Of a stretch of 64,000 nucleotides of DNA, positions 35,194-57,984 are shown piece by piece. The notes under the pieces are model-generated. The model worked only from the letters and a program-made list of their open reading frames with translations, was not told the DNA's origin and searched no databases. Origin of the DNA: Verrucomicrobiota bacterium. Its GTDB lineage: Bacteria > Verrucomicrobiota > Verrucomicrobiia > Limisphaerales > UBA11320. Position numbers and translations under genes: made by a program. How positions within the stretch are numbered: position 1 is the stretch's first letter; every line of letters begins with the position of its first letter. The DNA is taken from assembly GCA_016199985.1 (NCBI GenBank), contig JACQFQ010000029.1:73440-137439 (forward strand), written 5' to 3'.

Positions 35194-35218
35194 GGAACTC
35201 TTCGATGCATCCTTCGAC
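35194..35218 (+). promoter_or_regulatory. Candidate ECF-type promoter (GGAAC-N16-CGAC) upstream of the sigma gene
   Basis: The sequence gttGGAACtcttcgatgcatccttCGACac lies about 115 nt upstream of the ATG at 35331. This is a pattern match only. Confidence 0.25.
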
Positions 35219-35330
35219 ACTTCCTTTGTCAGTCTGTTCGCAACGCCATCATCGGCGCAATCTGCGCTTGAAGTCGGTCTCGACCTTGATATCCACTGGC
35301 CGCTCCTATTCCTCCACCCACAAGCACGAC

Positions 35331-36110: not shown

Positions 36111-36129
36111 GCCCTAGCGTGAGGAACCG

Positions 36130-41700: not shown

Positions 41701-42464
41701 GCTCGTACTCAAAGTCCTTGGGCGGGGTAACCGCCAATGGAGCGTACCGTTTGGAGCCGACACAACTCGCCGGTTTTCCCACGACTTATCGATCCATCCT
41801 CTCCGAGTCTCTCGGAGGATCCATGTCTGCTCCCGCCCTGGAGACGGCCGGGCTCGCCTTGAGCCTGAGGATGACCGACCGGCTCTATGCGGGCTTCGAA
41901 GTCAGGGCCTTGAGCTCGTCAGCTCGCAACTGGATCGGCGCCTTGGATGTGGACGAGGGCCCTGGAGGAACAGTGCAGCGCTTGTCTTTGACGCAGACGG
42001 CAACAACGCGGGAAACCATGGGGTCGGTTTACGCGAACTGCCTGATAAGCTCAGAGTGCTTGGTTGGCCTGGACTACAGTGTGACACACGCAAGGTATCG
42101 CTCCGTCCTTCCCGAGCCAGCGTCATTGATCATTGACGGTCCATCCGACTTTACCCAGAGATCCACACTTCATCGGATTGGGATTCGCGGGGCCTTCAAT
42201 CATCCATCGGGATTCTTTGCGAACACCGACCTCTCCTGGCTTCTACAGAGCAGTTCCAGCAGCGTGACAGGCGAGAGAACACCAGGCGAATCCTTCGTCG
42301 ATGTGAACGCCTCCCTCGGCTATCGTTTCCGGCGGCAGCGCGCTGAGTTTCTCCTGGGTGTTATGAACCTGGCCGGGCGGAGCTATGAGTTGAATCCGCT
42401 GACTCCGTACGAGGAGTTTCCCAGATCCCGTGTTTTTGTTGCTCGGTTGCGGTTCAAATTCTGA
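38736..42464 (+). CDS. Secreted FecR-like domain + TPR repeats + large C-terminal putative outer-membrane beta-barrel
   Basis: The ATG at 38736 overlaps the kinase stop (ATGA). The signal-like segment is CWPVALLGWLALVAQAARL. The FecR-like part is EGEIHVNS...DTPYGTANPQGTEYVV...TLFDGEADI. TPR-like helices span about aa 280-640. The alternating beta-like C-terminal ~600 aa end in FVARLRFKF. Confidence 0.75.
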   Translation: MSLPRPSPAWSPRRTRILSWVRLNLGPRRCWPVALLGWLALVAQAARLQGEEVGAFDLRTNTQPATINATEGAVLLYRGGLQPPQRIEPPQRMKLSRTNAPPTLEYQQQLQTLLTAWASLTLADQTTLRVWEMTRLYVVHPASNSAPPKLNIEEGEIHVNSRGAREGSCRVDTPYGTANPQGTEYVVSVDPLQRRTQITLFDGEADISNGRDHRVLKAGEQGTLSPGRQIEVRSIQASNIVQWWIYYPAVLDPEELPLTAEEKARAAESLAAYRSGSLAQALRNYPGYPQDARIDTDGQAIYYAALLLSVGSVRRAESALQRVNTNAPLARALRTMVEAVSVDMTGLDAPGKKRRASPSGRRLSASADSDLSSLSASEWIAVSYSHQATNNLEAAVESSRRAVERSPGFGFGWARLGELEFSFGRLSAARSAMEKALVLSPSNAPAHALQGFLLAGENRWRQALASFDRAIQLDARLANAWLGRGLCKRRLAWREPRRGPGAGRGVRPLPDWLSDLSTAVSLEPTRSLVRSYMGKGFAEVGEVELAEKELAYAKALDANDPTPWLYSAFLRREENRVNEAVYDLEQSIERNDNRAVYRSRLLLDEDRAVRSSSLASLYRDAGMNRLALAEAASAVSADYANYSAHQFLAESYNTLRDPTRFNLRYETVWFNELLLANLLSPPGATPLSQHVSQQEYSRLFEHNRVGLTTDSSYRSDGQYRELSSQFGVVGNMAWSLDLDYQRNDGIHPNNQLERTEWYTTVKQQLTPQDSVLLLSEHIDYRAGDIYQTYTPRDTDTRFRLNESQPGSVFVGYHREWSPGVDSLLLGGWVDASQEAQGGNYAIDVLAHNGGGTPVSQPQAFQFIDGVQTRFWSWEANQIFQTADHGALVGGRWQEGRLRTSDRIEPVDFDPDRIIRGSFETPLRETSAYGYYTCKLLDPLIITAGIGWDQATFGENFRSPPLTNTPTHRSRWEPKGALTWVPNAWMTLRGSYSKSLGGVTANGAYRLEPTQLAGFPTTYRSILSESLGGSMSAPALETAGLALSLRMTDRLYAGFEVRALSSSARNWIGALDVDEGPGGTVQRLSLTQTATTRETMGSVYANCLISSECLVGLDYSVTHARYRSVLPEPASLIIDGPSDFTQRSTLHRIGIRGAFNHPSGFFANTDLSWLLQSSSSSVTGERTPGESFVDVNASLGYRFRRQRAEFLLGVMNLAGRSYELNPLTPYEEFPRSRVFVARLRFKF

Positions 42465-42625: not shown

Positions 42626-44443
42626 ATGAGTTGCCTTCTGAAGCGGTGTTTGAGGTCTCCGCCGTGGTCATGTCGGCGTCCCTGGCCTCGCCAGCTGCCA
42701 TCCCCATGCCCCGCCACTGTGTTCCGCCGGCTCTGGCTCGTGTGTCTTCTCCTGAGTTGTGTCGGGAGCGCTGTTGCGCAATTCGATTTGTATTTCGAGG
42801 TGCTCAACCCCCCTGTCAGCGCCTTCCAGTGTCAGCATGTCGGCTGGGTCATCAGAGTGACAAATAAGGGCAGTTTTGTTTCACCGAATGTTTGTTTTCT
42901 GACCGGTGTCGTTCCTCAATCGGGGCCGCAGCAATGGAACACGCCGTTCCAGATTCTCAACTTTCAGACCAAGATGCTCCGCCCGGGGGAGAGCCAGCTT
43001 TTTCCGGTTACCGATTACGTCATCCTCTGCAACGCGCCTTTGGGGAGGCTATACACCAAGGTCGAGACTCTTACGATTCCGACTTTTGGGTGTAGCATGG
43101 ACTTTCTTACCAATGGCAACTGGGATGAGAAGCCCATCCAGATTCAGGAAACGTTCTGGGATCTTAGGTTCCGGCTTGTGAACCCGCCAACTCACGGCGT
43201 GACCTGTTCCTCGGTCGACTGGGCGATAGAGGTGACGAACGCGGGCAACGCCGCTTCCCAGGACGTTTGTTTCTTTTCCGGGATCGGCCCCTTCTCAGGG
43301 CCTGGGAATTGGAAGGATGTTCCGTTTTTCGCGCCCTTCCGCTCTGGCAGCATTCCCCGTGGCGGCAGTCGCGTGTTCCCTGTCATCAACTACCAGATCC
43401 CTTGCAGTGCGACACCCGGCCAGCAGTATGTGAAGGTGGAGATCAACTATAACCCCGGGGCATGCGACGATCCGCACAAGGCTGGAAACTTTGCGGAGTC
43501 CGCGATTCAGTTGGAGGCTGGATATTGGGACCTCCAGTTTTCGATTGCGAAAGCTCCTCCGACGGGGTTGCTGGGCAGTTTTGTGCGATGGGATGTGAAT
43601 GTGGTCAACGCCGGGACACTGACTTCCATGGACGTTTGTTTCGTAACCGGGATAGGTCTCCATAGCGGGCCAAACGCATGGGCCGACAACCTGGGTCTTG
43701 TGTCCCTGCACTCCGGCCCGATTCCGCCACACACGACGGAGACATTTGCCGTTGCCGGATACTTGATCTCCCCTCTTGCCCTGCGCACCCAACAGTACAT
43801 CAAAGCCGAGATCAACTATGCGGCTGGCTGTTTCGACCCCTTTTCCACGGGGAACTATGCCGACGTTCCCATCCTGCTGGACCTGGACGAGAACTGTGCC
43901 ACATGTCCGCTTCAGGGCCCTGGCCCGTGGTTGGAACCGATCTTCTTGGATATACCTCCCCCTGGGTCTAGACCCCCGATCAACGGGTCATACTACGGAC
44001 ACCTTCATGTTGGCATAGGACCTTCGCAAGCCGTTGCGTCGGGCGCGCAGTTTTGGTGGCTCGATTACAAGAATACGAATCATTTCAGCCAGAGCACCAA
44101 CTTCCTGATGCAACCGGGCCTCGCCTTCACACTTCATTTCGGCCCCGCTGAACATTACACCGAGCCGACCAACGTGACGTTCGTTCTCTCCAGAGGTGAT
44201 CAGGCTGAGTATCTTGGGAACTATCTGGCGCATGGAAAACTGGAACTCTCACAGGGACAGCTGTGGCTCATTGGTTCGAGTGGGAGCACCTATCGCATCG
44301 AGTCCAGCCCGACCCTGGATTCGAACGCCTCCTGGAAGCCCGTGTTTCAACAGGCCCTGACATCCGAGACTCGTATGGCGCTGGATGGCCTGGCGCCAGC
44401 CGTTTCCAGCAACCTGTTTCTTCGTGCCGTCCTTTCTCCATAG
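42626..44443 (+). CDS. Secreted protein with three tandem ~123-125-aa CARDB-like repeats and a C-terminal FYRL-type-like domain
   Basis: The probable true start is the GTG at 42719 (VFRRLWLVCLLLSCVGSAVAQ signal). The repeats begin FDLYFEVLNPP, WDLRFRLVNPP and WDLQFSIAKAPP. Each carries V(T/V)NAG and (D/N)VCF.(T/S)G. Confidence 0.7.
   Translation: MSCLLKRCLRSPPWSCRRPWPRQLPSPCPATVFRRLWLVCLLLSCVGSAVAQFDLYFEVLNPPVSAFQCQHVGWVIRVTNKGSFVSPNVCFLTGVVPQSGPQQWNTPFQILNFQTKMLRPGESQLFPVTDYVILCNAPLGRLYTKVETLTIPTFGCSMDFLTNGNWDEKPIQIQETFWDLRFRLVNPPTHGVTCSSVDWAIEVTNAGNAASQDVCFFSGIGPFSGPGNWKDVPFFAPFRSGSIPRGGSRVFPVINYQIPCSATPGQQYVKVEINYNPGACDDPHKAGNFAESAIQLEAGYWDLQFSIAKAPPTGLLGSFVRWDVNVVNAGTLTSMDVCFVTGIGLHSGPNAWADNLGLVSLHSGPIPPHTTETFAVAGYLISPLALRTQQYIKAEINYAAGCFDPFSTGNYADVPILLDLDENCATCPLQGPGPWLEPIFLDIPPPGSRPPINGSYYGHLHVGIGPSQAVASGAQFWWLDYKNTNHFSQSTNFLMQPGLAFTLHFGPAEHYTEPTNVTFVLSRGDQAEYLGNYLAHGKLELSQGQLWLIGSSGSTYRIESSPTLDSNASWKPVFQQALTSETRMALDGLAPAVSSNLFLRAVLSP
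42779..43900 (+). repeat. Three in-frame tandem repeats of 375/369 nt inside CDS 42626-44443
   Basis: The repeat anchors (F/W)D(L)-x-F sit at 42785, 43160 and 43529 (GAT/GAC codons). The repeats are diverged at the DNA level but align clearly at the protein level. Confidence 0.7.
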
Positions 44444-44802
44444 CCCTTCCTTTCCAGGCGCGCCAGGGAATCGGAGCCTTCCGCCGAGTGGACATGTCCC
44501 GTGGTCGGTGTTCCTCGAGTTGCTGAGGCTGTTTCCTTCCTGATCTGATACCGGTTCTCGTCCGCGCTGCGCGCTGGAGAAGGCCGTGATCTTCTTTACT
44601 CGCATCGGGCGTGGATCCCTCCACGAACGAGCGCATCTCAGCCCTGATCAGGCAAACCGGACGGCCTTTTCCTTCTTCCTGCAAATCCTCCGTCATAATC
44701 CCGCGCCCTCTACGTGGTATCTCGTGAAAGGGCGGGCCTTTGAACAGAGACGGCCTGCAAAACCTGAGAACACCACTACTTGCCCCATTACGCGGAGCTG
44801 CC

Positions 44803-46548
44803 ATGAAAACCATCCCACTCATCTTTGTTTGTTGCCTGCTCGCCGGGTCTGAGACATCTCAAGCTGTCACCCTGGCGAGCCTGGAGTTTGACGCGGACAA
44901 CCATCTTCCGTCCCAGGATCCTGGCATCGCCCTTTTCAACAGCACAGGATCGCCCGAGGCAGACGTCTTCGATGTCTCGGGCGGCTTCCTCCATCAACAC
45001 ACATTTGATCTGGGAGGATCCGCCCGCTACCACTCTCCCAACCTCCAGCTCACCTCAGGAACCTTGAGAGCGGACTGGGATCTAAGGCTGGAAGCGCGGT
45101 TCGTCGTGCATCGTGTCGGCGGGCCCCGGGGCGCGTTCTTTGAGGCGTTTGACGGCGCCAATGTCTACTCAGTCGAGTTCACACCCGGAGGCGTTGTCGT
45201 TGCCGCCGAGGAAATCGGGTTTTCTCCGGTGATTCCAGTTTCCGAATCCGAACCTCACATCCTCCGGCTGGAGTCTCGCAGCGGCACTGGAGAAGTGCTG
45301 TGTTTTGTGGACGGCCTCCTTCGATTTAGGGGGCTCGCCCCGACGAAAACGACTCTGAACGGGTTCTGCTGGGGGGATGGCAGCGTGGAGCCTGGGGCCG
45401 GCGCCGACATTGACTGGGACTACTTGCGAATCCAACAGCAGCCCCCGGCCATTCTGCGAATCGTTCAGGCCCAGGCTCATTGCGGCGCGAACACGGTGAC
45501 GCTTTCCTACAATCAACCTGTCACCCTAGAGGGCAGCTATACGCTGGAGAACGGTGTCTCCGTGATCCGCCGGACCTATGGAAGGGACTCCGCTGAAGTC
45601 GTTTTGTCGACGTCGCTTCTTGCCCCGCGCACGGCCTACCGTCTCACGGTTCGCGGTGTGCATAGCCTGGAGACGCCCTCGGACGAGCTGGAATCAGATT
45701 CCTCAGTCTGGTTCGTGGGTTGCGCGAGCGCGTGCAACGAGCTGGTGAGCGCTCCAGCCGACGGAGGCGCCGTGACGATTGGCTGGGGGGACCCATCCGA
45801 TGCCATCCAGACCAGCACGAACCTGAGCACTTGGTGGGATCTTCCGGGAGCGGTGTCTCCCATGGTCGTTCCTTCGCACGGCTTGCCGATGCAGTTCTTT
45901 CGTCTCACCTGTGATCCGACGGGCACAACGAACGGACCTCTCCCTGCGTTCATCCGACAGCCGCGCTCGTTTGGCGTCAGCAGTGGCAATAGCGTCTCCT
46001 TCGAGGCGCAGATCGTGGGTCTCGGGCCGATGAGCTATCAGTGGTTTCGCAATGGGACCAACCTGCTGGGACAGACGAGCGACCGGCTCACGCTCGTCGC
46101 TGGCAGTGAATCCGACGAGGGGGTGTATGAACTCCGCGCCACGAATAGATTCGGGGTGGCCTGGAGCAAGCCGGGCTATCTCCTGCTCACTCCTCAACTT
46201 CCCCCTGCGTCATGGAATACACTCGTGGCCAGGCCTAGTGTTTTCGTTCTCTTGCTTCGTCCTGCCCGGGACTTCTCGTTCAACACAACCCTGGCTTCCG
46301 AGGAGATCCATACGATGAGTTGGGGGAAAGACAACGTCGACGGATTGTCGTTCAACACCACCCTGGCCTCGCCCCCTGTGGACGTCTTTCTCTTGGGTCT
46401 CCCCTTCCCGGAATCGCTTCCATTCAACACGACGGTCGCCGGATCGCCTGTATCGGTGTTTCTCCTGGGATCCGAGACCCCGGAAGGGCTGGCATGGAAC
46501 ACCTCAATCGCCCAACCGCCTGTGCAACTCAAACGATCCGCGTTCTGA
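44803..46548 (+). CDS. Secreted multidomain protein with a ConA/LamG-like domain, an SbsA-Ig domain, an internal FYRL-type domain, an Ig I-set domain and five C-terminal 22-24-aa repeats
   Basis: The signal peptide is MKTIPLIFVCCLLAGSETSQA (ATG at 44803). The Ig-like part is YQWFRNGTNLLGQTSDRLTL...DEGVYELRATN. The internal domain reads IQTSTNLSTWWDL...MQFFRL. The C-terminal repeats have the form (F/W)NT(T/S).A..PV.VFLLG. Confidence 0.7.
   Translation: MKTIPLIFVCCLLAGSETSQAVTLASLEFDADNHLPSQDPGIALFNSTGSPEADVFDVSGGFLHQHTFDLGGSARYHSPNLQLTSGTLRADWDLRLEARFVVHRVGGPRGAFFEAFDGANVYSVEFTPGGVVVAAEEIGFSPVIPVSESEPHILRLESRSGTGEVLCFVDGLLRFRGLAPTKTTLNGFCWGDGSVEPGAGADIDWDYLRIQQQPPAILRIVQAQAHCGANTVTLSYNQPVTLEGSYTLENGVSVIRRTYGRDSAEVVLSTSLLAPRTAYRLTVRGVHSLETPSDELESDSSVWFVGCASACNELVSAPADGGAVTIGWGDPSDAIQTSTNLSTWWDLPGAVSPMVVPSHGLPMQFFRLTCDPTGTTNGPLPAFIRQPRSFGVSSGNSVSFEAQIVGLGPMSYQWFRNGTNLLGQTSDRLTLVAGSESDEGVYELRATNRFGVAWSKPGYLLLTPQLPPASWNTLVARPSVFVLLLRPARDFSFNTTLASEEIHTMSWGKDNVDGLSFNTTLASPPVDVFLLGLPFPESLPFNTTVAGSPVSVFLLGSETPEGLAWNTSIAQPPVQLKRSAF
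46213..46545 (+). repeat. Five tandem 66-72-nt (22-24-aa) repeats at the 3' end of CDS 44803-46548
   Basis: The (W/F)NT codon anchors sit at 46213, 46279, 46351, 46423 and 46495, spaced 66, 72, 72 and 72 nt apart. Confidence 0.75.
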
Positions 46549-48218: not shown

Positions 48219-49784
48219 ATGAACACCAGCCTCACTCGTCGAACCTTCCTCACTCAGGTCAGCCAGGGCATGTTGCTGGCCACGGTCGGATTGGAAACAG
48301 CCGCTGACCTGCGTCTGACCGCGAAGCCACAGGATGAAGGCGAGGGCGCCCTGGACTTCGGCCCGCGGGAGCCCCTGGTGCGCTTGATGCAGGAAACTCC
48401 GGTGGATCGGTTGTTGCCCGCGCTTGTTCGCCAACTGCGTTCCGACGTGAGCTTGAAGGACCTTGTAGCCGCGGCCGCTCTGGCCAACGCGCGCACCTTC
48501 GGAGGCGAGGATTATGTGGGCTTCCACACGATGATGGCGCTCGCCCCGGCGTTCTACATGTCGCAGGAGCTCCCGTCATCCCAGGCGGCTCTCCCCGTAT
48601 TCAAGGTGTTGTATCGAAACACCGCGAGGATTCAGGAGCATGGCGGACGCAAGGGCGAGGTGCTCCACGCGGTGGAGGGCGGGGCGGGCTCGGCGAGCGT
48701 GGAGGGCGGGGTTGCGCTGCGGGACGCGGTTCGGAGCGCCGACGCGCAGAAAGCGGAAAGGACGCTCGCCTCCATCGCGCGCGGGTCCGCTGAAGACGCG
48801 TTTGAGGCGGTTTTGATGGCGATGCACGATCACACCGAGGTGCATCGCGTGGTCCTTCCGTATCGTGCCTGGGACATGCTGGGCATTGTCGGAAAGGAGC
48901 ACGCGAATACGATGCTTCGGCAGTCGGTCCGCTATTGCGTGAAAGCCGAATCCTATTCGCGCTCCGCCGCGGGCGACGAACCCCGGACGCTGCTTCCACG
49001 CTTGCTCGAGGAGCATCACTTGATGTCGAAAACCCCGGGAACGCGAGACCCGGGAGATGGATGGGTGCAGGAATTCAGCGAGACGCTTTTCAAGTCCACC
49101 GGCGCTCAAGCCGCAGCCGCCGCCGCCGCCGCCCTGGCGGACGGAATCGCCCCGGATGTCATCGCCGAGGCGGTGTCCCTTGCGGCGAACCAGTTGGTTC
49201 TTCGCGACCAAGGCCGTCTGCCGCGCGAAGAAGTCGCGGGAAAGCCGGTGGGGAGCGTTCACGGCGATTCGATCGGGGTTCACGCGTCGGATTCCGCGAA
49301 CGCCTGGCGGAATATGGCGAAGGTTGCGCGTCCGAGAAATTGCTTCGCGAGCGCGATCCTGGGCGCCTATCAGGTCGCGGTGGATCGCACAGCCCGCGGC
49401 GGCGATTTCGATCATTGGCAGCCTCTGCCGATAGAGCGACACCTCAGCGAGATCAAATCGACGTCGCCCGAGGCGCTCCTCCGCGAAGCCGAGGAAGCGA
49501 TCCGCGGCAATCTTCAGGCCAAGGCGGCCGCGGTCGCACATCGATATGGCCAGCAGGGGCACGCGCCGCGCCCCCTGTTCGACCTTCTGCTTCGGTACGC
49601 CGTGAGCGAGGACGGCTCATTGCACGCGGAGAAGTTTTATCGCACCGCGTCGGAGGAGTTCGGCAGGAGCCGCGCGGTCTATCGCTGGCGGTACGCGGTT
49701 GCCCTGGCGCGAGTGACGGCGAGCGAGTATGGCCGTCCGGCTCCCGGAATCGCGGAAGCCCGATCGCTGCTTCAATTGAGTTGA
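48219..49784 (+). CDS. Tat-signal hypothetical protein (mostly helical)
   Basis: The ATG at 48219 gives MNTSLTRRTFLTQVSQGMLLATVGLETAADL, a twin-arginine motif. I recognise no family. The N-terminal 118 aa of the track ORF are rejected. Confidence 0.65.
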   Translation: MNTSLTRRTFLTQVSQGMLLATVGLETAADLRLTAKPQDEGEGALDFGPREPLVRLMQETPVDRLLPALVRQLRSDVSLKDLVAAAALANARTFGGEDYVGFHTMMALAPAFYMSQELPSSQAALPVFKVLYRNTARIQEHGGRKGEVLHAVEGGAGSASVEGGVALRDAVRSADAQKAERTLASIARGSAEDAFEAVLMAMHDHTEVHRVVLPYRAWDMLGIVGKEHANTMLRQSVRYCVKAESYSRSAAGDEPRTLLPRLLEEHHLMSKTPGTRDPGDGWVQEFSETLFKSTGAQAAAAAAAALADGIAPDVIAEAVSLAANQLVLRDQGRLPREEVAGKPVGSVHGDSIGVHASDSANAWRNMAKVARPRNCFASAILGAYQVAVDRTARGGDFDHWQPLPIERHLSEIKSTSPEALLREAEEAIRGNLQAKAAAVAHRYGQQGHAPRPLFDLLLRYAVSEDGSLHAEKFYRTASEEFGRSRAVYRWRYAVALARVTASEYGRPAPGIAEARSLLQLS

Positions 49785-49809
49785 AGCAACAAGGCGAACG
49801 CTTCGATGG

Positions 49810-50166
49810 ATGGGTATGGTTGACGCGTTCTCCGACGACATTTCAGCCGCTCGTTACCTGGCGGCGATCCACTCTCAGTTCCAGACCCGGACTCCGGCGG
49901 GAGATCGGATTGCATTGAGACTGATCCAGGTGACGTCGCCCCGAATGACCCTCGCCTCGGTCGATCCCGCGGGACCCCGATATGAGTGCTTCTCGTTGAT
50001 CTTCGAGGGGGCCGATGACACCCCGCTTTCCCAGGGCTTGTGTCGTCTGGAGCATGACGCCTTGGGAGTCGCGGACATCTTCATTGTGCCGGTCGGCGCG
50101 GAGCGCGGACGTCGGCAGTATGAGGCGGTCTTCAATAGAAGGGTTACCCCTTCGCCCCTGCCGTAA
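49810..50166 (+). CDS. Small hypothetical protein, paralog A (no signal peptide)
   Basis: The 118-aa product shares F.L.F.G...H..LG..D(I/L)FIVP(V/I)GAE....YEAVFNR with the next gene. Confidence 0.6.
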   Translation: MGMVDAFSDDISAARYLAAIHSQFQTRTPAGDRIALRLIQVTSPRMTLASVDPAGPRYECFSLIFEGADDTPLSQGLCRLEHDALGVADIFIVPVGAERGRRQYEAVFNRRVTPSPLP

Positions 50167-50303
50167 GGCCTCCGTCCTCCGGCGTTCCTGCGCTGAACGG
50201 CATCGCGCCCGCGCCAAATGCCCGGCGGGCCGCGCATCTCGGGACGCGTTGCTGTTCGGATGTCCGTAAACGCGTCAAACGCGCGCCGTCCCATCCTAAT
50301 GTT

Positions 50304-50332
50304 TTGACCCAAGCCTCCGATCTCGTTAGCAT
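50304..50332 (+). promoter_or_regulatory. Candidate sigma70-like promoter (TTGACC-N17-TAGCAT)
   Basis: The sequence ttgacc(50304-50309)-17 nt-tagcat(50327-50332) lies about 33 nt upstream of the ATG at 50365, inside the only sizeable gap (198 nt) of this cluster. Confidence 0.3.
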
Positions 50333-50364
50333 GCGTTTCGCCGTCCGAAAACCGGAGTCGCTGG

Positions 50365-50847
50365 ATGTTTAAGTTGTTTATCGCTACTCGCCGACGCTTT
50401 ATTGGTGGTTGTTCCGCCCTCGCCGCGATCATGGCTTGCGTTCGAGTCCGCTCGGCGACCTCCCTCAGGGATCCTTTCTCGGCGCCATCCTTTTCTGAAC
50501 CGCCTTCATTCGAAGCGTTCGCCCGGCACTCCCTTTCCTCCTTCGTTGCGCTGAATCGCGGCGGAGAGTCCCGCCAACTTCAACTCGTGCTCGTCGAGTC
50601 GCCTTCATCGCGGGGCCTGGGCGTGGCGCGCGGTCCGGATTCCCGCAACGAGAGGTTCCGGTTGGTCTTTCGCGGTGAAGGAGCGTCGCGCTGGGCGCAG
50701 GACACCTATCGATTCCATCACGCGCATCTCGGCGAGTTCGATTTGTTCATCGTTCCCATTGGCGCCGAAGATCCGCGCCATGGTTATTACGAGGCGGTGT
50801 TCAATCGTCCCTCCCGACTCAGCCCAAAGGAGACCGCTCATGTCTGA
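50365..50847 (+). CDS. Small hypothetical protein, paralog B, with a Tat-type signal
   Basis: The N-terminus is MFKLFIATRRRFIGGCSALAAIMA (twin-Arg). The C-terminal domain is paralogous to 49810-50166 and ends DLFIVPIGAEDPRHGYYEAVFNR. An 8-nt overlap joins it to the next gene. Confidence 0.65.
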   Translation: MFKLFIATRRRFIGGCSALAAIMACVRVRSATSLRDPFSAPSFSEPPSFEAFARHSLSSFVALNRGGESRQLQLVLVESPSSRGLGVARGPDSRNERFRLVFRGEGASRWAQDTYRFHHAHLGEFDLFIVPIGAEDPRHGYYEAVFNRPSRLSPKETAHV

Positions 50848-51343
50848 ACCCTTTATAGGAGAAATCCGCGCGTTCAGCTTCAACTATGCTCCCAAAGGGT
50901 GGGCGATGTGCAATGGGCAGCTGTTGCCGATCAACCAGAATCAGGCGTTGTTCGCTCTGTTGGGAACGACCTATGGCGGCGATGGGCGAACGACTTTCTC
51001 GCTCCCCAATCTGCAGGGACGCGTTCCTTTGCACTTCAGCCAGGCCATTCCGCAAGGCGCAACGGGGGGCGAGCTCGCGCATACCCTAACTCTTTCCGAG
51101 ATGCCGGCGCACACTCACGTCCTTCAGGCCTCTCCGGCGGTTGGGACGGCGAATGTTCCCACCAACACCTCCATGCTGAGCCGTCGCGCCGCCGAGATTT
51201 ATCACGATCCCGTGGATCTGACGCCGATGGGCCCTTCCACCGTGGGCCCCGCCGGGTCCGGTCAGGCTCATTCCAATTTGCAGCCGTATCTGGTGTTGAA
51301 CTTCTGCATGGCATTGCAGGGATTATTTCCATCGCGCAACTGA
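50840..51343 (+). CDS. Phage tail collar domain protein (MdpB/COG4675-like), paralog 1
   Basis: The start is MSEPFIGEIRAFSFNYAPKGWAMCNGQLLPINQNQALFALLGTTYGGDGRTTFSLPNLQGR. An HTH (HxH) motif is present. The C-terminal motif is GQAHSNLQPYLVLNFCMALQGLFPSR. Confidence 0.9.
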   Translation: MSEPFIGEIRAFSFNYAPKGWAMCNGQLLPINQNQALFALLGTTYGGDGRTTFSLPNLQGRVPLHFSQAIPQGATGGELAHTLTLSEMPAHTHVLQASPAVGTANVPTNTSMLSRRAAEIYHDPVDLTPMGPSTVGPAGSGQAHSNLQPYLVLNFCMALQGLFPSRN

Positions 51344-51353
51344 GGACCAAGCC

Positions 51354-51857
51354 ATGGGACAACCTTTCTCCGGTGAGATTCGACTGTTCGCGGGCAACTT
51401 CGCCCCGCTGGGATGGGCGTTCTGCGAGGGGCAGCTGCTGCCCATCTCGGAGTATGAGGTTTTATTCACCTTGATCGGGACAACGTATGGCGGAGATGGC
51501 CAATCGACCTTCGCGCTGCCAGACCTCCGCGGGCGCGTGGCCGTGCATCAAGGCCCGGGTTTTGTGGCCGGGCAGAGCGCCGGCGTGGAGTTCGTGACGC
51601 TTACAACGGCTCAACTGCCGCCGCACACGCATCCATTCCTTGCGTCGGCCGATTCGGCGGCGTCTCCGAATCCTGAAGGTCGCACGCTCGCTGAGACGGC
51701 GACGACGACACCGTATTTCCAGGGTTCGGCCGCAGTGGCCCTGGCTTCGAGTTCAATGGGTCCGGCTGGCGGAAACCAACCCCATAGCAATCTGCAACCG
51801 TTTCTATGCATGAATCACATCATTTGCCTGCAGGGAATCTTCCCGACCCGGAGCTAA
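51354..51857 (+). CDS. Phage tail collar domain protein, paralog 2
   Basis: The N-terminus reads GEIRLFAGNFAPLGWAFCEGQLLPISEYEVLFTLIGTTYGGDGQSTFALPDLRGR. An HTH motif is present. The C-terminal motif is GNQPHSNLQPFLCMNHIICLQGIFPTR. Confidence 0.9.
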   Translation: MGQPFSGEIRLFAGNFAPLGWAFCEGQLLPISEYEVLFTLIGTTYGGDGQSTFALPDLRGRVAVHQGPGFVAGQSAGVEFVTLTTAQLPPHTHPFLASADSAASPNPEGRTLAETATTTPYFQGSAAVALASSSMGPAGGNQPHSNLQPFLCMNHIICLQGIFPTRS

Positions 51858-51877
51858 CGCAACTCGCCTCCTGAGAT

Positions 51878-52408
51878 ATGGCTGATCCATTCCTGGCTGA
51901 GATTCGACTTTTCGGGTTCAACTTCGCTCCGAGGGGATGGGCGTTCTGCACCGGACAGATCCTCCCGATTGGTCAGAACACAGCGCTCTTTTCTTTGCTC
52001 GGCACCACGTATGGCGGCAATGGAAGGTCAACTTTCGCGCTGCCGAATCTCGAGGGAGCCGTCGTGATGCATCCGGGCCATGGGCCGGGGCTCTCGAACT
52101 ATGATCTGGGTCAATCGGGGGGACAATCGACGGTGACGCTTCTCAATTCCGAGATGCCGCAACACTCTCACGCGCTCGCGGCGTCGAATGAGATCGGCGA
52201 GGACCGGAAGCCTTCGGGCGAAGCTTTTGCGCGATCCACGGGAGGCCCGCTTTACGGTCCTCCGCCCGTCCCTCCGGCCGCTTCCGTCGCGATGGCGCCC
52301 GCCGCGATCGGCGTCATCGGCGGCAATCAACCTCACAACAACATGATGCCCCATCTGGCGGTGAGCTTTTGCATCGCGCTGCAGGGAATCTATCCGGCTC
52401 GCGGCTGA
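51878..52408 (+). CDS. Phage tail collar domain protein, paralog 3
   Basis: The N-terminus reads AEIRLFGFNFAPRGWAFCTGQILPIGQNTALFSLLGTTYGGNGRSTFALPNLEG. An HSH motif is present. The C-terminal motif is GNQPHNNMMPHLAVSFCIALQGIYPAR. Confidence 0.9.
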   Translation: MADPFLAEIRLFGFNFAPRGWAFCTGQILPIGQNTALFSLLGTTYGGNGRSTFALPNLEGAVVMHPGHGPGLSNYDLGQSGGQSTVTLLNSEMPQHSHALAASNEIGEDRKPSGEAFARSTGGPLYGPPPVPPAASVAMAPAAIGVIGGNQPHNNMMPHLAVSFCIALQGIYPARG

Positions 52409-52420
52409 GGCGAGCTCACG

Positions 52421-52936
52421 ATGATGAATCCCACCCCTCACTCTGAAGCGGCGTTCTCCCTCCGCCCCGCGCAAGACGCCGACGCCGAGGCGCTGTTCCG
52501 AGTTTACGCGAGCACGCGAACAGAGGAGTTGGCGAAGGTTCCCTGGGACGATGGGAGGAAGGATGCGTTCCTCCGCATGCAGTTCGAGGCTCAGACCCGC
52601 TGCTACCGATCCGACTACCCCGGCGCTGTGTTTGACGTCATTCTAGTTCGTGGGGCGATTGCCGGACGTCTTTCGGTGCATCGACGCGCGCAGGAGATCC
52701 GAGTCATGGACATCGCGCTGCTCCCTGAGCACCGGCGTCGTGGGATCGGCGGTCGGATTCTACGCGGTATCCTTCAAGAAGCGGAGCGGGATGCCAAGCA
52801 TGTCACCATCCATGTGGAGAGTTTCAATCCGGCGCAACATCTCTATGAGCGCTTGGGGTTCCAGCGCGTGGGGAGCAACGGGGCGCACCACCTGATGGAG
52901 TATCGTCCCGCCGCGCTCGTGGAGGCGAGGTCATGA
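52421..52936 (+). CDS. GNAT family N-acetyltransferase
   Basis: The 171-aa product has the acetyl-CoA motif LLPEHRRRGIGGRILRGIL and the C-terminal motif AQHLYERLGFQRVG. Its stop overlaps the next start by 4 nt. Confidence 0.85.
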   Translation: MMNPTPHSEAAFSLRPAQDADAEALFRVYASTRTEELAKVPWDDGRKDAFLRMQFEAQTRCYRSDYPGAVFDVILVRGAIAGRLSVHRRAQEIRVMDIALLPEHRRRGIGGRILRGILQEAERDAKHVTIHVESFNPAQHLYERLGFQRVGSNGAHHLMEYRPAALVEARS

Positions 52937-55900
52937 GACCAAGTCTTCGCTCGATGGCCGCGGGGTTCGTCTGGCTCTGCGTCCTTGCCGCCCTGAATCC
53001 GGAGGCGCTGGCGCAAACCAATCTGGGTGTCGCGCTGACGACGTCGCTCACCGCGACACAGGGCGCCGTGTTGGCATACACCCTGATCATTACCAACCAG
53101 GGGACCAACGCGGTTCAGGGGGTCAGATTCTCGGATATTCTCGATCCGAACACGACGCTCGTTCCAGGGTCGGTGAACACGTCGCCCCTGGCGTTCGACG
53201 ACGCCTATTCGGTGATCGGCAACGTGGCGCTGAGCATCCCCGCTCCCGGAGTGCTTGCGAACGATGTGGATCTCGATGGCGTGGGGCCTGCCTTGTCGGT
53301 CACAGGTTTCGACGCCGCTTCCGCGCGGGGCGGCAAGATCGTGATGAGCGCGAACGGCGGATTCACGTATGATCCGCCCGTTGGATTCGAGGGCGTCGAC
53401 AGCTTCAGCTACCGGATCGACGACGGAGAGGGATTCACGGACACAGGGAAGGTGAGTCTGACCGTGACGGGCGTCGTTTGGTTTGTGAACGCCGCCGCCC
53501 CCGCGGGCGGCGACGGACGATTGAAAACCCCTTTCAAGTCGCTCGCCTCTTTCGCCGCGATCAATAACAACAGTCCGGCAGGCGGTCGGAGCGGTCACAG
53601 CCTCTTTCTGTATTCGGGGTCCTACGCGGGCCCGCTCACGCTCCTGAACGATCAGAGAATCCTGGGTCAGGGCGCCGGGGCTTCGCTCTCCGCGATCACA
53701 GGCCTGACGCCACCCGTTGGCAGCCTCGCGTTTCCGGCAACGGGCGGCGCGCGACCTGTGGTGGGAAACGGCACGGCCGGGATCGTTCTTGCATCCGGCA
53801 ATCAGGCGCGCGGCTTGAATTTCTCCACAACCGGCGGGGCGATCGCAGGCGCCCACGTTGGCGCGCTCACGTTGCTGGAGATCGGTGTCACGAACACCGG
53901 CGGCGTCGCTGTCAACCTGGCTGACGGATCCCTCAGCGTCACCCTCGACGCGGTCCATTCGACCGGGGGCGCCACGGGGATACGCCTGGCGAAATGCGCC
54001 GGCGGTTTTGCCATCATCGGCGATGGCGCCGCCGCGGAAAACGGCAGCGGAGGCACTCTCAAGACGACCACGGACAGCGCGGTGATTCTGGATGGGGCCG
54101 CCAATGTTTCGCTCTCGCGGATGCGAATCCTCAACGCGGGCGGCAGCGGCGTCTGGGGCCAGAGCGTCAATGGCTTGGTCGTGGACTGGTGCCGGCTTGC
54201 CAACAACGGCGACGCTGTGGGAGAGGCCGGCATTCGGCTCGGGGATCCCTTGGGGGCCACGGGTTTGATCGGAACCACCTCTGGCGGTTCGAACCCCACG
54301 CGTATCTCGAACACCCTGATCCTGGGCTCGGGAGAGATGAATCTTGCGATCTACAACAACGCAGGGACATTGCAACAGTTGGATCTCGTGAACCTTGTCT
54401 CCAGCGACACCCGCAATCGTCCGCTGGGGGCCGACGGATTCCTGTTCGAGACCCGCGGCAGCGCGGTCGCGGCGCTCTCCTTTGCGCATTCGTCCTTCTC
54501 CAACAACTTTACCCAAGGGATCCAGGCTTCAGCCTTGGATAAGTCCACGCTTACCGTGAGCGTTGTGGACTGCGGATTCACCAATAACAATGAGGGCGTT
54601 GTGCTCGGGAACGCGAACGCCGCTCAGCTGACCTTCGACGTGGCCAGCAACCGGTTCGTCAACACGCTCGCCGCGGGGGCCTCCGGCGCGGCGATCGCCG
54701 CGGTCAACGCGACCACGGTGACAGGCGTCGCCCTCTACTCGGGGCGGATCCGGAACAACACGATTGCCGGCGGGGGCATCGACAATCACTTGATCGCCGC
54801 GCTTTTCTCCGGCGCCGGGAACAACACGCTTTCGGTGACAAGCAACTCTATTGTGGCCGCCAACAGCCAGTTCAGCGGCGTCTTCATTCAGGCGGGCGAA
54901 GCGGGCTCGGGCAAGCTGAGCGCCAGCGTTTTGGTGAAGGGCAACAAGGTTTCCGTCGGCGCCTTGGGGAGCCATGGGATAGTAGCGCAATCGCGCGTGA
55001 TATCGACGCTCTGCGCTGAGATCGCCGAGAACGTTTCCACGACGGCGGGCCAGGGATTGTTCGGCGTCAATATCCGTCAGCGGGACGCTTCGACCTTCCG
55101 GCTGCCTGGATTCGCCGGTCCGTTCAACTCCACCGCATCGGTCGCCGCGTTCGTTGCCGGCAAGAACAACGGCAGCACCGTGAACGCCACTGTCAGCAGC
55201 GCCTACTCGGGCGGCGGTCCTTGCGTTCTCCCCCTGATGGCCGCGGCTCGACCGACGCCTCGAGATGCGACGGCGGCCACGCCTCTTTCGCCATCACGGT
55301 CTTCAGACGAGTTTCCACAGCCGGCGCGGGGCGTCCCACCGGTCGCGAACCGATCGCCGCGGGCGCTGAGCGACGCCGAGTTGCAAGCTGGGGCGGCCGC
55401 GGCGCGCGAGGTGTGGGCGCGCTCAGGAATCAGTCCTCAGAGGCTCGAGGCTCTGGAGCATGTGCGGTTCGAAGTGGCCGACCTGAGCGGGTGGCGGCTG
55501 GGCGAGTCCACGCCGGGCCTGGCTCGCCTGGATCGCACCGCGTGCGGATACGGATGGTTTGTCGATCCCTCGCCGTTGTCCAACGCGGCGCCGCAGGGAC
55601 AGATGGATTTGCTCTCCGCGCTCGCGCATGAGATGGGACATCAGCTCGGGCTGGCCGACGACTACCGTCCTTCGCGGAGCGGGGACGTGATGTACGGCGT
55701 GTTGGCGCCCGGCGAGCGGCGATTGCCTTCCGCGGGCCGCGCGCTTTCTGGCGCGGGCCGCTCTGACGCGGGTCCGCACTATCTGACAGCCGCGCTGGAT
55801 GTCGGGACCCTCCCTCCGGGCAAGAGCCTCACCATCGCCTTCCGTGCCCAAGTGGCGAAACCGATGCCGGGGGGCGTCTGCGCCTTGTCCAATCAGGCGA

Positions 55901-57984
55901 CGGTCTCCATGGCGGGCGCTCCGCCCGTTCTGAGCGATGATCCACGGACGTCTCCTCCCTTCGACGCCACGGTGACATCGATCGCGCAACCCCCGCTCGT
56001 CGCGACCCTTGCTGCGACCTCAGTGACGAGCGACGGCGCGGCGTTGAACGGATCCGTCAACAGCTGCGGATCCGCCGGAGGATACTACTTTGAGTTCGGT
56101 CCCACCGCGGCCTACGGATCGCGGACTCCAGGCGGACCGATTGCGGGCGGCGTGGGGGATGTCGCGGTGGGTGATTCGCTTGCCGGCCTTTTGTCTGGAG
56201 GGGCCTACCATTTCCGTGTCGTGGCGACGAACGCCTTCGGGACCAGCGCGGGAGGCGATCGAGTTTTTGTCACTGGGATCACGATCCTCAAGCAGCCGCA
56301 GAGCGTGGTGCTTTGCGTCGGGCGACTCACGACGTTCGTCGTCGCGGTGAATGTGCCTGGCGCGACCTATCGATGGCAACGCCGGCTGGCGGGGTCCGCC
56401 GGTTTCCTGAATATCCCGGGCGCGTCCTCCCCGACATTCACGGTTTTGTCCGCGAAAGCGACGGACGACGGGACCGCCTATCGCGTGGTAGTGGCGACGG
56501 ACGCCATCCACGTCACGAGCGATGAGGCTTTCCTGTCCGTCATCACGGTGAAGGCCCCCTTTCTGAGCGCCAATTTCGACAAAGGGCTTCCGGCCAACAC
56601 CGCGACTTACGGCGACGCGTACATCGACGCCGCGACAGGCGTGTTGGAGTTGAATCCGAACGCAGGCGGCCGCGCCGGCGCGTTTCTCACCGCGGACCCC
56701 GCGCCGGGTCGCTTTGTTCAAGGCTTCGTCGCTTTGTTCAAGGCGCGGATTTCCTCGGTTGTCTCTCCTCCCGCCGACGGCTTCAGCTTCAACTGGGCTT
56801 TTGACCTGCCGAACGGCGCGTACAGCGTCGCGGAGGAAGGGGAGGGCTCCGGGCTTTCTGTCGCGTTCGACACATTCGACAACGGGGGCGGAGAAGCGCC
56901 GGCCATCGACGTGTTCTGGAAAAGGACCCTGGTGATTCACCGGCCTGTGCCCATCGACTTCCTCGTCCGTGGCGACAGCTTTTTCGACGTGGGGATTCGC
57001 GTGACGCCCGACGGGCTGCTCGACTTGATTTGTGGATGCGAATCCGTGTTCGCTCGGCTTCCAATTCCAGGGTTCACGCCATTGAGGGGAGCGCGGTTCG
57101 GATTGGGTTCGCGCACCGGCGGGCTCTGGGAGACTCATGGGATTGACGATCTGGCTATTGATATTGGCGTTGATCCCACCAATGGAGTTCCGCGCATCGA
57201 TTCCGTTTCGCTACAGTTGCCGAAGGGCCTCGTGATACGGGGCGCCGCGCCGCCTGAACTGAACCTGATCCTGGAATCGTCCGTGGACTTGAGGGCCTGG
57301 ACTTGGCGTGGGTACATCCATCCGGGCGCGGATGGAAAATGGGAATTCGTGGACGCCGACGTGGCTTCGAGCGCTCAACGATTCTACCGCCTCCGTTCGC
57401 TCCCCCAGTTTCCATCCGGGTTGCTGAACTACTATGACGCCGACGGAAGTTTTCAGGACGGTTTCGGACAGGATCACGGCTTGCCGATCGGGGGGATAGG
57501 CTTCGGCCCGGGAGAAAGAGGCCAGGGGTTTCTCTTCGACACTCCTGACCGGCTCGTCTCGATCCAGGCTGCTCCCCTCCCTGTTCCCTGGACGCTGGGG
57601 ATCTGGGTGAAGCGCGGCGTGGCCGTGGATCGTTCCGAATCTTTGCTCTTCGACGCGGCGACCGCCGTGAAACTGGAGCAATGGGACAATTCGCATCAGG
57701 TGGGGCTGACCCAATTCGGGGCCGCGGACTACTATTTCAAATACACGGCGCCCTTGGACGTCTGGACGCACCTCGCGCTCGTCGCTGTGAAGGGATCGAC
57801 ACAACTCTACGTGAACGGCGTCCTGACGGACACACAGCCCGTGAGCATCAATCTGCCCCGAGGCGCGCTGGGCGGGAGAGTCGGCGACCGCTTGCAGGCC
57901 GTGATCGACGAAGTCGCCATCTTCGGGCGCGCGCTCTCCGCCTCCGAAATCCTGCAGGTCTATTCCGCGACTCACGGACCCTGA
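52933..57984 (+). CDS. Giant secreted multidomain exoprotein (1683 aa)
   Basis: The protein begins with a signal peptide (FVWLCVLAALNPEALAQ). It continues with a DUF11-like repeat and a cadherin/VCBS-like Ig domain (GVLANDVDLDG...FTYDPPVGFEGVDSFSYRIDDG). A parallel beta-helix region follows (about aa 180-760), then a zinc-protease motif HEMGHQLGLADDY. Next come a second DUF11-like segment and an Ig I-set domain (YRWQRRLAG...DDGTAYRVV). A lectin/ConA-like domain follows (ADGFSFNWAF), then an internal FYRL domain (AQRFYRLRSL). The protein ends with a C-terminal LamG domain (WTHLALV...LYVNGV...IDEVAIFGRALS). Confidence 0.85.
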   Translation: MRPSLRSMAAGFVWLCVLAALNPEALAQTNLGVALTTSLTATQGAVLAYTLIITNQGTNAVQGVRFSDILDPNTTLVPGSVNTSPLAFDDAYSVIGNVALSIPAPGVLANDVDLDGVGPALSVTGFDAASARGGKIVMSANGGFTYDPPVGFEGVDSFSYRIDDGEGFTDTGKVSLTVTGVVWFVNAAAPAGGDGRLKTPFKSLASFAAINNNSPAGGRSGHSLFLYSGSYAGPLTLLNDQRILGQGAGASLSAITGLTPPVGSLAFPATGGARPVVGNGTAGIVLASGNQARGLNFSTTGGAIAGAHVGALTLLEIGVTNTGGVAVNLADGSLSVTLDAVHSTGGATGIRLAKCAGGFAIIGDGAAAENGSGGTLKTTTDSAVILDGAANVSLSRMRILNAGGSGVWGQSVNGLVVDWCRLANNGDAVGEAGIRLGDPLGATGLIGTTSGGSNPTRISNTLILGSGEMNLAIYNNAGTLQQLDLVNLVSSDTRNRPLGADGFLFETRGSAVAALSFAHSSFSNNFTQGIQASALDKSTLTVSVVDCGFTNNNEGVVLGNANAAQLTFDVASNRFVNTLAAGASGAAIAAVNATTVTGVALYSGRIRNNTIAGGGIDNHLIAALFSGAGNNTLSVTSNSIVAANSQFSGVFIQAGEAGSGKLSASVLVKGNKVSVGALGSHGIVAQSRVISTLCAEIAENVSTTAGQGLFGVNIRQRDASTFRLPGFAGPFNSTASVAAFVAGKNNGSTVNATVSSAYSGGGPCVLPLMAAARPTPRDATAATPLSPSRSSDEFPQPARGVPPVANRSPRALSDAELQAGAAAAREVWARSGISPQRLEALEHVRFEVADLSGWRLGESTPGLARLDRTACGYGWFVDPSPLSNAAPQGQMDLLSALAHEMGHQLGLADDYRPSRSGDVMYGVLAPGERRLPSAGRALSGAGRSDAGPHYLTAALDVGTLPPGKSLTIAFRAQVAKPMPGGVCALSNQATVSMAGAPPVLSDDPRTSPPFDATVTSIAQPPLVATLAATSVTSDGAALNGSVNSCGSAGGYYFEFGPTAAYGSRTPGGPIAGGVGDVAVGDSLAGLLSGGAYHFRVVATNAFGTSAGGDRVFVTGITILKQPQSVVLCVGRLTTFVVAVNVPGATYRWQRRLAGSAGFLNIPGASSPTFTVLSAKATDDGTAYRVVVATDAIHVTSDEAFLSVITVKAPFLSANFDKGLPANTATYGDAYIDAATGVLELNPNAGGRAGAFLTADPAPGRFVQGFVALFKARISSVVSPPADGFSFNWAFDLPNGAYSVAEEGEGSGLSVAFDTFDNGGGEAPAIDVFWKRTLVIHRPVPIDFLVRGDSFFDVGIRVTPDGLLDLICGCESVFARLPIPGFTPLRGARFGLGSRTGGLWETHGIDDLAIDIGVDPTNGVPRIDSVSLQLPKGLVIRGAAPPELNLILESSVDLRAWTWRGYIHPGADGKWEFVDADVASSAQRFYRLRSLPQFPSGLLNYYDADGSFQDGFGQDHGLPIGGIGFGPGERGQGFLFDTPDRLVSIQAAPLPVPWTLGIWVKRGVAVDRSESLLFDAATAVKLEQWDNSHQVGLTQFGAADYYFKYTAPLDVWTHLALVAVKGSTQLYVNGVLTDTQPVSINLPRGALGGRVGDRLQAVIDEVAIFGRALSASEILQVYSATHGP
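56708..56744 (+). repeat. Perfect 17-nt direct repeat with 20-nt period inside the giant CDS
   Basis: The sequence gtcgctttgttcaaggc occurs at 56708-56724 and again at 56728-56744. The two copies are read in different frames (RFVQG / VALFKA). Confidence 0.9.

Follow-up and report, generated by a model that had tools for sequence, protein, structure and literature searches.

A widespread non-viral bacterial cassette unites three tail-collar paralogs with an acetyltransferase, DUF6916 proteins and a giant exoprotein

Why does a bacterial genome carry three phage tail-collar genes in a row, and with which partners would their products work? A 64,000-nucleotide stretch from a Verrucomicrobiota bacterium (assembly GCA_016199985.1, contig JACQFQ010000029.1, positions 73,440 to 137,439; hereafter the window) raises this question at its positions 48219-57984, where eight co-directional genes, all on the plus strand, include three encoding proteins of about 170 amino acids (aa) of the tail-collar family, here called Col1, Col2 and Col3. 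To our knowledge, collar-domain proteins have been understood only as parts of viral fibres, and the stand-alone bacterial ones (RhiB, MrpB, COG4675) have been without a known function since the 1990s. An earlier, sequence-only reading of this locus suggested that the three paralogs form a heterotrimeric carbohydrate- or cell-surface-binding knob, working with or modified by the neighbouring GNAT acetyltransferase and linked to the giant exoprotein downstream. We found that seven of the eight genes, all but the one for a 521-aa protein with a twin-arginine translocation (Tat) signal, are one copy of a widespread bacterial cassette, and this firmly established result, together with those below, partly supports the earlier interpretation.

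A conserved cassette outside phages

Gene coordinates were taken from the open reading frame (ORF) table of the window, and domains were assigned by Pfam; NCBIfam, PADLOC and Rfam were scanned as well. The features of the cluster are as follows.

48219..49784, + strand: Tat-signal protein, 521 aa; adjoining gene, outside the conserved cassette
49810..50166, + strand: DUF6916, short form, 118 aa; PF21880 E 3.4e-21; no signal peptide
50304..50332, + strand: promoter-like TTGACC-N17-TAGCAT, inside the 198-nt spacer; chance level
50365..50847, + strand: DUF6916, long form, 160 aa; PF21880 E 2.4e-19; twin-arginine signal TRRRFIGG and hydrophobic stretch
50840..51343, + strand: Col1 (collar paralog 1), 167 aa; PF07484 E 1.4e-29; PAHTH (HxH) motif
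51354..51857, + strand: Col2 (collar paralog 2), 167 aa; PF07484 E 2.2e-28; PPHTH motif
51878..52408, + strand: Col3 (collar paralog 3), 176 aa; PF07484 E 3.7e-26
52421..52936, + strand: GNAT N-acetyltransferase, 171 aa; Acetyltransf_1/3/7/10 (Pfam)
52933..57984, + strand: giant Sec-signal exoprotein, 1683 aa; DUF11, Big_9/cadherin, beta-helix-like, HEMGH, immunoglobulin (Ig)-like and C-terminal Laminin_G_3 regions

The cassette thus comprises a GNAT, a short cytoplasmic DUF6916, a long Tat-signal DUF6916, the three collars and a large Sec-signal beta-helix/Ig protein. To begin with, long contigs were located for three homologues of the short DUF6916, and on all three a GNAT, DUF6916 and three collar genes stood together; some of these contigs had a second, long DUF6916, and in two of the three a very large secreted protein was encoded nearby. 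Further loci were retrieved, from one genome per species, with a degenerate DNA pattern for the DUF6916 motif FIVPV-8 residues-Y[EQ]AVFNR, as 8-kb pieces whose six-frame ORFs were searched by phmmer with the window proteins. The pattern gave 33 loci, belonging to Acidobacteriota (Pyrinomonadaceae, Bryobacteraceae, Blastocatellia), Verrucomicrobiota (Pedosphaera), Chloroflexota (Anaerolineales, Ktedonobacterales), Bacteroidota, Nitrospiraceae, Geobacter and Candidatus Magnetocorallium. A cassette-type GNAT was present in 30 of the 33 and collar genes in 24, with a complete or edge-truncated triplet in 17; the loci that fell short of the full cassette were mostly cut by the end of the 8-kb piece. 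The sequence-only reading had proposed to give up its view if the neighbourhood proved not to be conserved in other genomes, and the neighbourhood recurs across several phyla.

Cultured bacteria carry the cassette as well, in these arrangements.

Comamonas antarctica 16-35-5: short DUF6916, Tat-signal DUF6916 (NRRGFLARG), GNAT, three genes annotated as 'tail fiber protein', and a YDG-domain giant gene of >11 kb
Ruegeria sp. TM1040, Aminobacter spp. and S. meliloti LMB1: giant protein of the Ig or choice-of-anchor-D kind, collar triplet, in some cases one additional gene, GNAT, DUF6916
Deinococcus ficus and Paenibacillus amylolyticus: giant protein, collar triplet and GNAT; no DUF6916

The layout in C. 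antarctica is that of the window, with the same pair of short and Tat-signal long DUF6916, and a DUF6916 hidden Markov model recognised the family member in the Ruegeria, Aminobacter and S. meliloti loci (E 4e-22, 7e-20 and 3e-22, respectively). Overall, the cassette is borne on chromosomes or megaplasmids, outside phages, in at least eight bacterial phyla; it occurs in Verrucomicrobiota, Acidobacteriota, Chloroflexota, Bacteroidota, Nitrospiraceae, Geobacter and Alpha- and Betaproteobacteria, and, lacking DUF6916, in Deinococcus and Paenibacillus. The DUF6916 proteins, which the sequence-only reading had grouped with the collars as the YEAVFNR family, are therefore true members of the cassette across loci, and the proposed links of the collars, with the GNAT on the one hand and a large secreted protein on the other, are borne out by a gene adjacency conserved across phyla. 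A literature search found no paper describing a cassette of triplet, GNAT and giant protein.

Within the window, the genes are tightly packed. The spacers, in gene order, are 25 nt, 198 nt, an 8-nt overlap (the stop of the long DUF6916 over the start of Col1, which an AAGGAG ribosome-binding site precedes), 10, 20 and 12 nt, and a 4-nt overlap of the GNAT gene with the start of the giant gene; the eight genes and their spacing had been given in exactly this form before. The assignment of the three proteins to the collar family likewise held, with PF07484 E values of 1e-29 to 4e-26 and scores of 102.2, 98.4 and 91.3 bits against a gathering cut-off of 24. A promoter-like TTGACC-N17-TAGCAT had also been pointed out. 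It is indeed present in the 198-nt spacer, but one such site was found against 1.4 +/- 1.1 in shuffled sequence, and we rejected it as a functional signal. NCBIfam returned no match for the collar, DUF6916 or 521-aa proteins, Rfam no RNA family anywhere in the window, and the PADLOC anti-phage defence models no match among all eight cluster proteins.

The 521-aa Tat protein, which had been taken as part of the unit, is an incidental neighbour. It belongs to a very large and highly conserved family (>6000 homologues, the closest about 68-70% identical, about 520 aa long and mostly from Verrucomicrobia) that has no Pfam match. Searches by phmmer found a homologue in none of the other cassette loci, including the closest one, from Pedosphaera, and a 68%-identical homologue in another Verrucomicrobia genome (P0133) has a neighbourhood unrelated to the cassette; on these grounds its candidacy as a cassette member was rejected. 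In another genome, the gene for a homologue of this protein is preceded by two genes, for products of 385 and 198 aa, whose starts overlap (L041, L042).

Could the collar genes instead be the remnant of a decayed prophage or tailocin that has kept its tail-fibre genes? The collars match PHROG tail families, and a few IMG/VR contigs hold full-length triplets, yet we regard such an origin as extremely improbable. The Pfam scan of 28 larger ORFs elsewhere in the window identified beta-oxidation enzymes, MacB/HlyD, IlvD, DUF1501, an ECF sigma factor, a Ser/Thr kinase with WD40 repeats, and secreted Ig/PA14 proteins. The genes downstream of the cluster encode PfkB, a protein kinase, a nitrilase-family enzyme and Opp ABC transporter subunits, and about 3 kb past the window end lie the genes for ribosomal proteins L9 and S6 and for SSB. 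Among these 28 ORFs, the post-cluster genes and the ~3 kb beyond the window, no sheath, tube, baseplate, tape-measure, portal, terminase or integrase gene was found, nor any other phage structural, lysis or integration gene. The claim that the stretch holds no other phage gene is upheld for these genes, as is the claim that the cluster is not a phage remnant, and the phage or tailocin genes just outside the window that would have spoken against them were not seen in that flank.

Sequence identity points the same way, as isolated phages reach at most 33-35% identity, versus 62-74% among cellular homologues. Most IMG/VR matches are single collar domains inside long fibre ORFs. The one long 'viral' contig of IMG/VR that has a triplet (L050) carries the cassette in host flank, on the far side of the integrase and of a bacterial DUF2076 gene and outside the prophage, and carriage by a phage was rejected for this contig; the other triplet contigs are short fragments. 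Moreover, DUF6916 has no match in 50,697 phage records, and the seven-gene order is kept across phyla. The collars form a cellular clade and are not recent phage cargo.

Three collar orthogroups and their assembly

A neighbour-joining tree built from 59 collar ORFs, which represent about 25 independent loci in several phyla, resolved three clean clades, each locus contributing one member to each. The genes run in the order Col1-Col2-Col3 or Col2-Col1-Col3. Residue 3 is specific to the orthogroup (E, Q or D), while all three orthogroups start M-x-x-P-F, with three residues ahead of the conserved Pro-Phe, and all three keep the P-x-H-x-H (HxH) motif. The proteins are 164-180 aa long, share conserved C-terminal QPHxN and LQG.FP motifs and have a stand-alone architecture, beginning directly at the collar domain. 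Among the plasmid records listed for Col1, most show exactly three collar places per record. Col3 has >8000 homologues at E <=1e-10, the top 120 of which have 62-74% identity and lengths of 161-177 aa; for Col1, identity to the orthologues in Comamonas, Deinococcus, Ruegeria and Paenibacillus is 45-56%. What had been described as three diverged tandem paralogs are, consequently, ancient and distinct orthogroups that co-occur, one of each per locus.

Three ancient orthogroups that are always found together are what an obligate heterotrimer predicts. A precedent exists in the virophage DSLV2, whose three consecutive PF07484 tail proteins form a stable 1:1:1 heterotrimer that binds the lipopolysaccharide of Synechococcus (PMC12724248, J Virol 2025). 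By analogy with this trio, and from the pattern of co-occurrence, we think that Col1, Col2 and Col3 probably form an obligate 1:1:1 heterotrimer. The monomeric Col3 gave a poor AlphaFold2 (AF2) model (pLDDT 42), as would be expected of a chain that belongs to an intertwined oligomer. The Col3 profile matches the long tail fibre structure 8kec (1.7e-6) and T4 gp12 (0.002-0.017). In T4, the HxH motifs of gp37 and gp12 bind metal, and those of the collars may likewise form a central metal site.

A different arrangement would be three homotrimers, one per paralog, with different ligand specificities and displayed as three separate knobs on the cell. Phage collar fibres of the T4 gp12 type, the protein matched by the Col3 profile, are homotrimeric, and collar numbers per locus other than three do exist, since there are loci with a single collar and others with six or nine. 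Single collars occur in Aliiroseovarius and Hymenobacter beside Ig-like giant proteins (L131 6998-8812; L132 3013-13318). However, the loci of the tree hold strictly one of each orthogroup across phyla with no clade lost, gene order and translational coupling are conserved, the arrays of six and nine are multiples of three, and the virophage trio was shown to be 1:1:1. Taking both sides together, we judge separate homotrimers quite unlikely for the cassette.

Two further observations concern these unusual loci. The nine and six tandem collar genes lie on IMG/VR fragments (L051, 1-5456, and L056, 5255-8531) and amount to three and two triplets, respectively; the triplet appears to have been duplicated there as a unit. 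As for the single-collar loci, one adjoins a gene for a DUF4331 protein and the other a gene for a protein with a PID-CTERM sorting domain.

Partner genes and a possible mechanism

The window GNAT belongs to the general GNAT family, and the solved structures nearest to it by sequence are N-terminal (N-alpha-) acetyltransferases, namely 6wqb and Naa50. A GNAT is the single enzyme shared by cassettes that have DUF6916 and those that lack it. Its gene is often translationally coupled, overlapping the giant gene in the window and the DUF6916 gene in another locus (L006), and in one case GNAT and DUF6916 are fused in a single 267-aa ORF (P0224, L049 13-816), the GNAT part of which is 37% identical to the window GNAT (E 1e-31). 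On the Spirosoma oryzicola plasmid NZ_CP089539.1, the place of the GNAT is taken by a gene of the formyltransferase family (L130 8690-9643), between the collar triplet and the gene for a 1487-aa cellulose-binding-domain protein; DUF6916 was not detected at this locus. This replacement of the GNAT by a formyltransferase suggests that the conserved chemistry is the N-acylation of an amine. Residue 2 of the collars is A, S or G in 63 of 66 sequences, and there is no invariant lysine. From the nearest structures, residue 2 and the formyltransferase swap, we hypothesize that the GNAT N-alpha-acylates the collar chains.

Both window copies of DUF6916 score well above the PF21880 cut-off (75.6 and 69.6 bits versus 27). 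At E <=1e-3 the family comprises 9,496 clusters in a set of 1.84 billion representatives, and A106-V-F-N-R110 is invariant in a 37-sequence alignment. The AF2 model of the short form is a confident small all-beta barrel (pLDDT 84). The likenesses of this model to the small barrels of phage necks and tails and to PilZ barrels are weak and do not count as evidence, and a literature search found no paper mentioning DUF6916. The family is dimorphic, as a twin-arginine (RR) motif occurs in 1 of 102 short forms and in 31 of 42 long forms among the 144 top representatives.

Export signals divide the cluster in the way that the sequence-only reading had described. The Tat-substrate pattern (S/T-R-R-x-F-L type plus a hydrophobic stretch) is present in the long DUF6916 (TRRRFIGG; TRRRFIGGCSALAAIMA) and in the 521-aa neighbour (TRRTFL; TRRTFLTQVSQGMLLATVGL), and both are predicted to be exported; the giant has a Sec-type leader; and Col1-3, the GNAT and the short DUF6916 have no signal peptide. 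In Tat hitch-hiker export, a subunit without a signal is carried across the membrane by a signal-bearing partner, as with HybO and HybC of E. coli hydrogenase-2. In the window and in four other loci (L014, L016, L030, L032), the long DUF6916 gene has its stop within the start of the first collar gene or directly next to it, and this coupling of an RR-bearing protein to the first collar fits hitch-hiker export of a pre-folded trimer.

The last member of the cassette varies. A large Sec-signal protein adjoins the triplet in nearly every locus with enough flank, usually right after Col3, and the neighbouring ORFs range from about 770 aa (cut by the locus end) to >4000 aa. Giants of a first type combine DUF11, Big_9/cadherin and beta-helix regions and are found in the window, in L014, L010, L018, L033, L035 and L003, and in Deinococcus, with homology to window residues ~31-390 at E 1e-12 to 1e-76. 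Homologous giants adjoin the collar triplet in L010, L014, L018, L033, L035 and L045 and lie about 4 kb away from it in L003; that of Pedosphaera (L014) is 57% identical to the window giant. Giants of a second type have an N-terminal 'CSLRxAIxxAN' beta-helix cap followed by Ig, PKD or cadherin domains (L016, L006, L040, L039 and, more weakly, L020 and L028). In the cultured genomes, the giants are annotated as Ig-like, choice-of-anchor D, YDG-domain or cellulose-binding proteins. The giant partner is therefore variable while the accessory genes are conserved.

Such variability is also seen in polymorphic effector systems, and it would suit a secreted toxin or bacteriocin-like module in which the giant, with its HExxH motif, is the effector, the knob provides targeting and the GNAT self-protection. 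The window giant does carry an HEMGH motif and a lectin-like domain. Of its earlier description as a lectin/protease, the lectin part stands on a C-terminal Laminin_G_3 domain (Pfam, E 5.5e-14), but the protease part comes down to the HEMGH motif and a sub-threshold NCBIfam match (21.7 bits versus a cut-off of 80), and this region is missing from most partner giants, which carry the beta-helix, Ig, cadherin or PKD domains typical of adhesins. Furthermore, the cluster has no PADLOC match, the cassette includes no dedicated secretion genes, and no observation made here backs an immunity role of the GNAT. We consider a toxin module very unlikely.

How, then, might the parts work together? We favour a cell-owned, metal-binding, heterotrimeric recognition knob that is modified by the GNAT, escorted by DUF6916 and active with the giant exoprotein, a model whose chances of being right or wrong we see as balanced. 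In this model, Col1, Col2 and Col3 would assemble 1:1:1 into a compact collar knob, equivalent to a tail-fibre tip without its shaft, which would hold a central metal site with one HxH from each chain. The GNAT would N-acylate a component in the cytoplasm, the likeliest target being the conserved Ala/Ser/Gly N-termini of the collars, and DUF6916, a small beta-barrel, would partner both the GNAT and the knob. The Tat-signal DUF6916, coupled in translation to Col1 in the window, could then take the trimer, already folded and without a signal of its own, through the inner membrane as a hitch-hiker. Once outside, the knob and the variable beta-helix/Ig giant would constitute a surface recognition or adhesion device.

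Several observations weigh against parts of this model. The collar proteins have no export signal, and many cassettes of Bacteroidota, Geobacter, Nitrospiraceae and Alphaproteobacteria have no Tat-signal DUF6916, while those of Deinococcus and Paenibacillus have no DUF6916 at all, so Tat hitch-hiking cannot be the general route. The best NCBIfam match of the window GNAT is to TIGR01575 rimI, at 38.6 bits versus an equivalog cut-off of 86.4. The GNAT-DUF6916 fusion is known from a single 868-bp metagenome contig and could be a sequencing artefact. The DUF6916 model has no significant fold match in the PDB or BFVD (best E 0.14 and 0.0096, TM <0.5). Five of the 33 loci (L013, L015, L017, L024, L036) have a GNAT and DUF6916 without a collar gene within the 8-kb piece. 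The single-collar loci make homotrimers possible elsewhere in the collar family. Finally, the collars are highly conserved (45-56% identity between phyla, 62-74% among top hits), which is unusual for receptor-binding proteins and speaks against a variable glycan as the ligand. The five collar-less loci hold GNAT and DUF6916 as pairs, sometimes two of each, and such a pair may have a role of its own or work in trans.

Some of these points would suit a machine that stays inside the cell. The collar trimer, the GNAT (or formyltransferase) and the short DUF6916 could form an N-acylation or maturation complex, act as a chaperone of the giant before its export, or act on a small-molecule amine. That none of these proteins has a signal peptide, that many cassettes have no Tat-signal component, that a GNAT is once fused to DUF6916, sometimes paired with it without collars and once exchanged for a formyltransferase, and that collar conservation is enzyme- or scaffold-like rather than receptor-like, all favour this view. 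Nevertheless, all characterised collar domains are extracellular receptor-binding or fibre elements (PMC12724248), and a stand-alone collar protein of Ruegeria pomeroyi was detected in exoproteomes (PMC4949626). The long DUF6916 proteins, in addition, carry clear Tat signals and are coupled to Col1, and the giant, which has a Sec leader, would be unfolded while crossing the membrane. We hold a cytoplasmic machine to be unlikely, although less so than separate homotrimers.

Returning to the exported knob, its most far-reaching version would be a domesticated tail-fibre tip owned by bacteria of many phyla, an N-acylated and metal-containing heterotrimer of Col1-3. The tip would fold in the cytoplasm and leave it under the escort of DUF6916, by Tat hitch-hiking where the escort bears a signal, and a whole class of giant adhesin-like exoproteins, unrelated in other respects, would have it as their conserved partner for recognition or anchoring. 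We put this version forward tentatively, as rather doubtful in its entirety. If true, the domesticated tip would be a previously unrecognised general apparatus for surface recognition, with a spread comparable to that of known adhesin-sorting systems.

Whichever mechanism applies, many stand-alone collar proteins now have a place in one conserved cassette, where their defined partners are a giant secreted protein, a GNAT and DUF6916, and their genes can be seen as three fixed orthogroups. The DUF6916 family, with its approximately 9,500 clusters, gains a first functional context. The cassette also suggests a means of targeting or anchoring giant adhesin-like proteins in soil and marine bacteria. 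As Comamonas antarctica 16-35-5, Ruegeria sp. TM1040, S. meliloti LMB1, Aminobacter, Deinococcus ficus and Paenibacillus amylolyticus are cultured carriers, collar function is directly testable.

Three further observations concern genes upstream of the cluster. At 35076-42464, genes for an ECF-type sigma factor, a Ser/Thr kinase-WD40 fusion and a 1293-aa protein with FecR, TPR and a TonB-dependent-receptor-like beta-barrel follow one another and may form a trans-envelope signalling unit. A 605-aa secreted protein without a Pfam match (42626-44443) has three internal repeats of about 140 aa, each with the pattern 'VNPP...C..V.W.I.VTN.G...S..VCF..G', and a 602-aa secreted Ig-domain protein (44740-46548) ends in four or five short C-terminal repeats with 'FNTT(L/V)A', which resembles an N-glycosylation sequon.

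Comparison with known systems

The likeness to hitch-hiker export by the Tat system lies in the position of a gene for a small twin-arginine protein directly upstream of, and coupled to, genes for signal-less proteins that would fold and oligomerise and probably bind metal; the difference is that many cassettes have no Tat-signal member. With T4 gp12 and the long tail fibre tips (PDB 1ocy, 1pdi, 5iv5, 8kec), the window proteins share the collar domain and the HxH motif. The phage proteins, however, are long, homotrimeric, shafted fibres on a baseplate, whereas those of the window are about 170 aa long, start at the collar domain, come as three paralogs and are not encoded in a phage.

Stand-alone collar proteins of bacteria have been reported in RhiB of the Rhizobium rhiABC operon and in MrpB of Microcystis (COG4675, 'microcystin-dependent protein'; PMC6969944, PMC13133039, PMC3328848). 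Another microcystin-related protein, MrpC, is the dominant extracellular glycoprotein of Microcystis and has been implicated in cell-cell contact. In addition, collar paralogs in Candidatus Solibacter were reported to be under positive selection, and stand-alone collar proteins have been detected in soil metaproteomes and marine exoproteomes. The rhiABC and mrpAB systems resemble the cassette in having a stand-alone bacterial collar protein with the COG4675 assignment given in those papers; they differ in having one collar gene rather than three, RhiA, RhiC and MrpA have no Pfam domain, and neither a GNAT nor DUF6916 has been reported with them.

A further parallel is the DSLV2 virophage, which we liken to the cassette from its published description. 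In both, three adjacent and co-directional collar genes of similar length are kept together as a conserved set. The trio of DSLV2 makes up a fibre of the virion and is predicted to dock on capsomers of the capsid, whereas the window has no capsid or other viral genes, and the partners of the bacterial trio are a GNAT, DUF6916 and a giant secreted protein.

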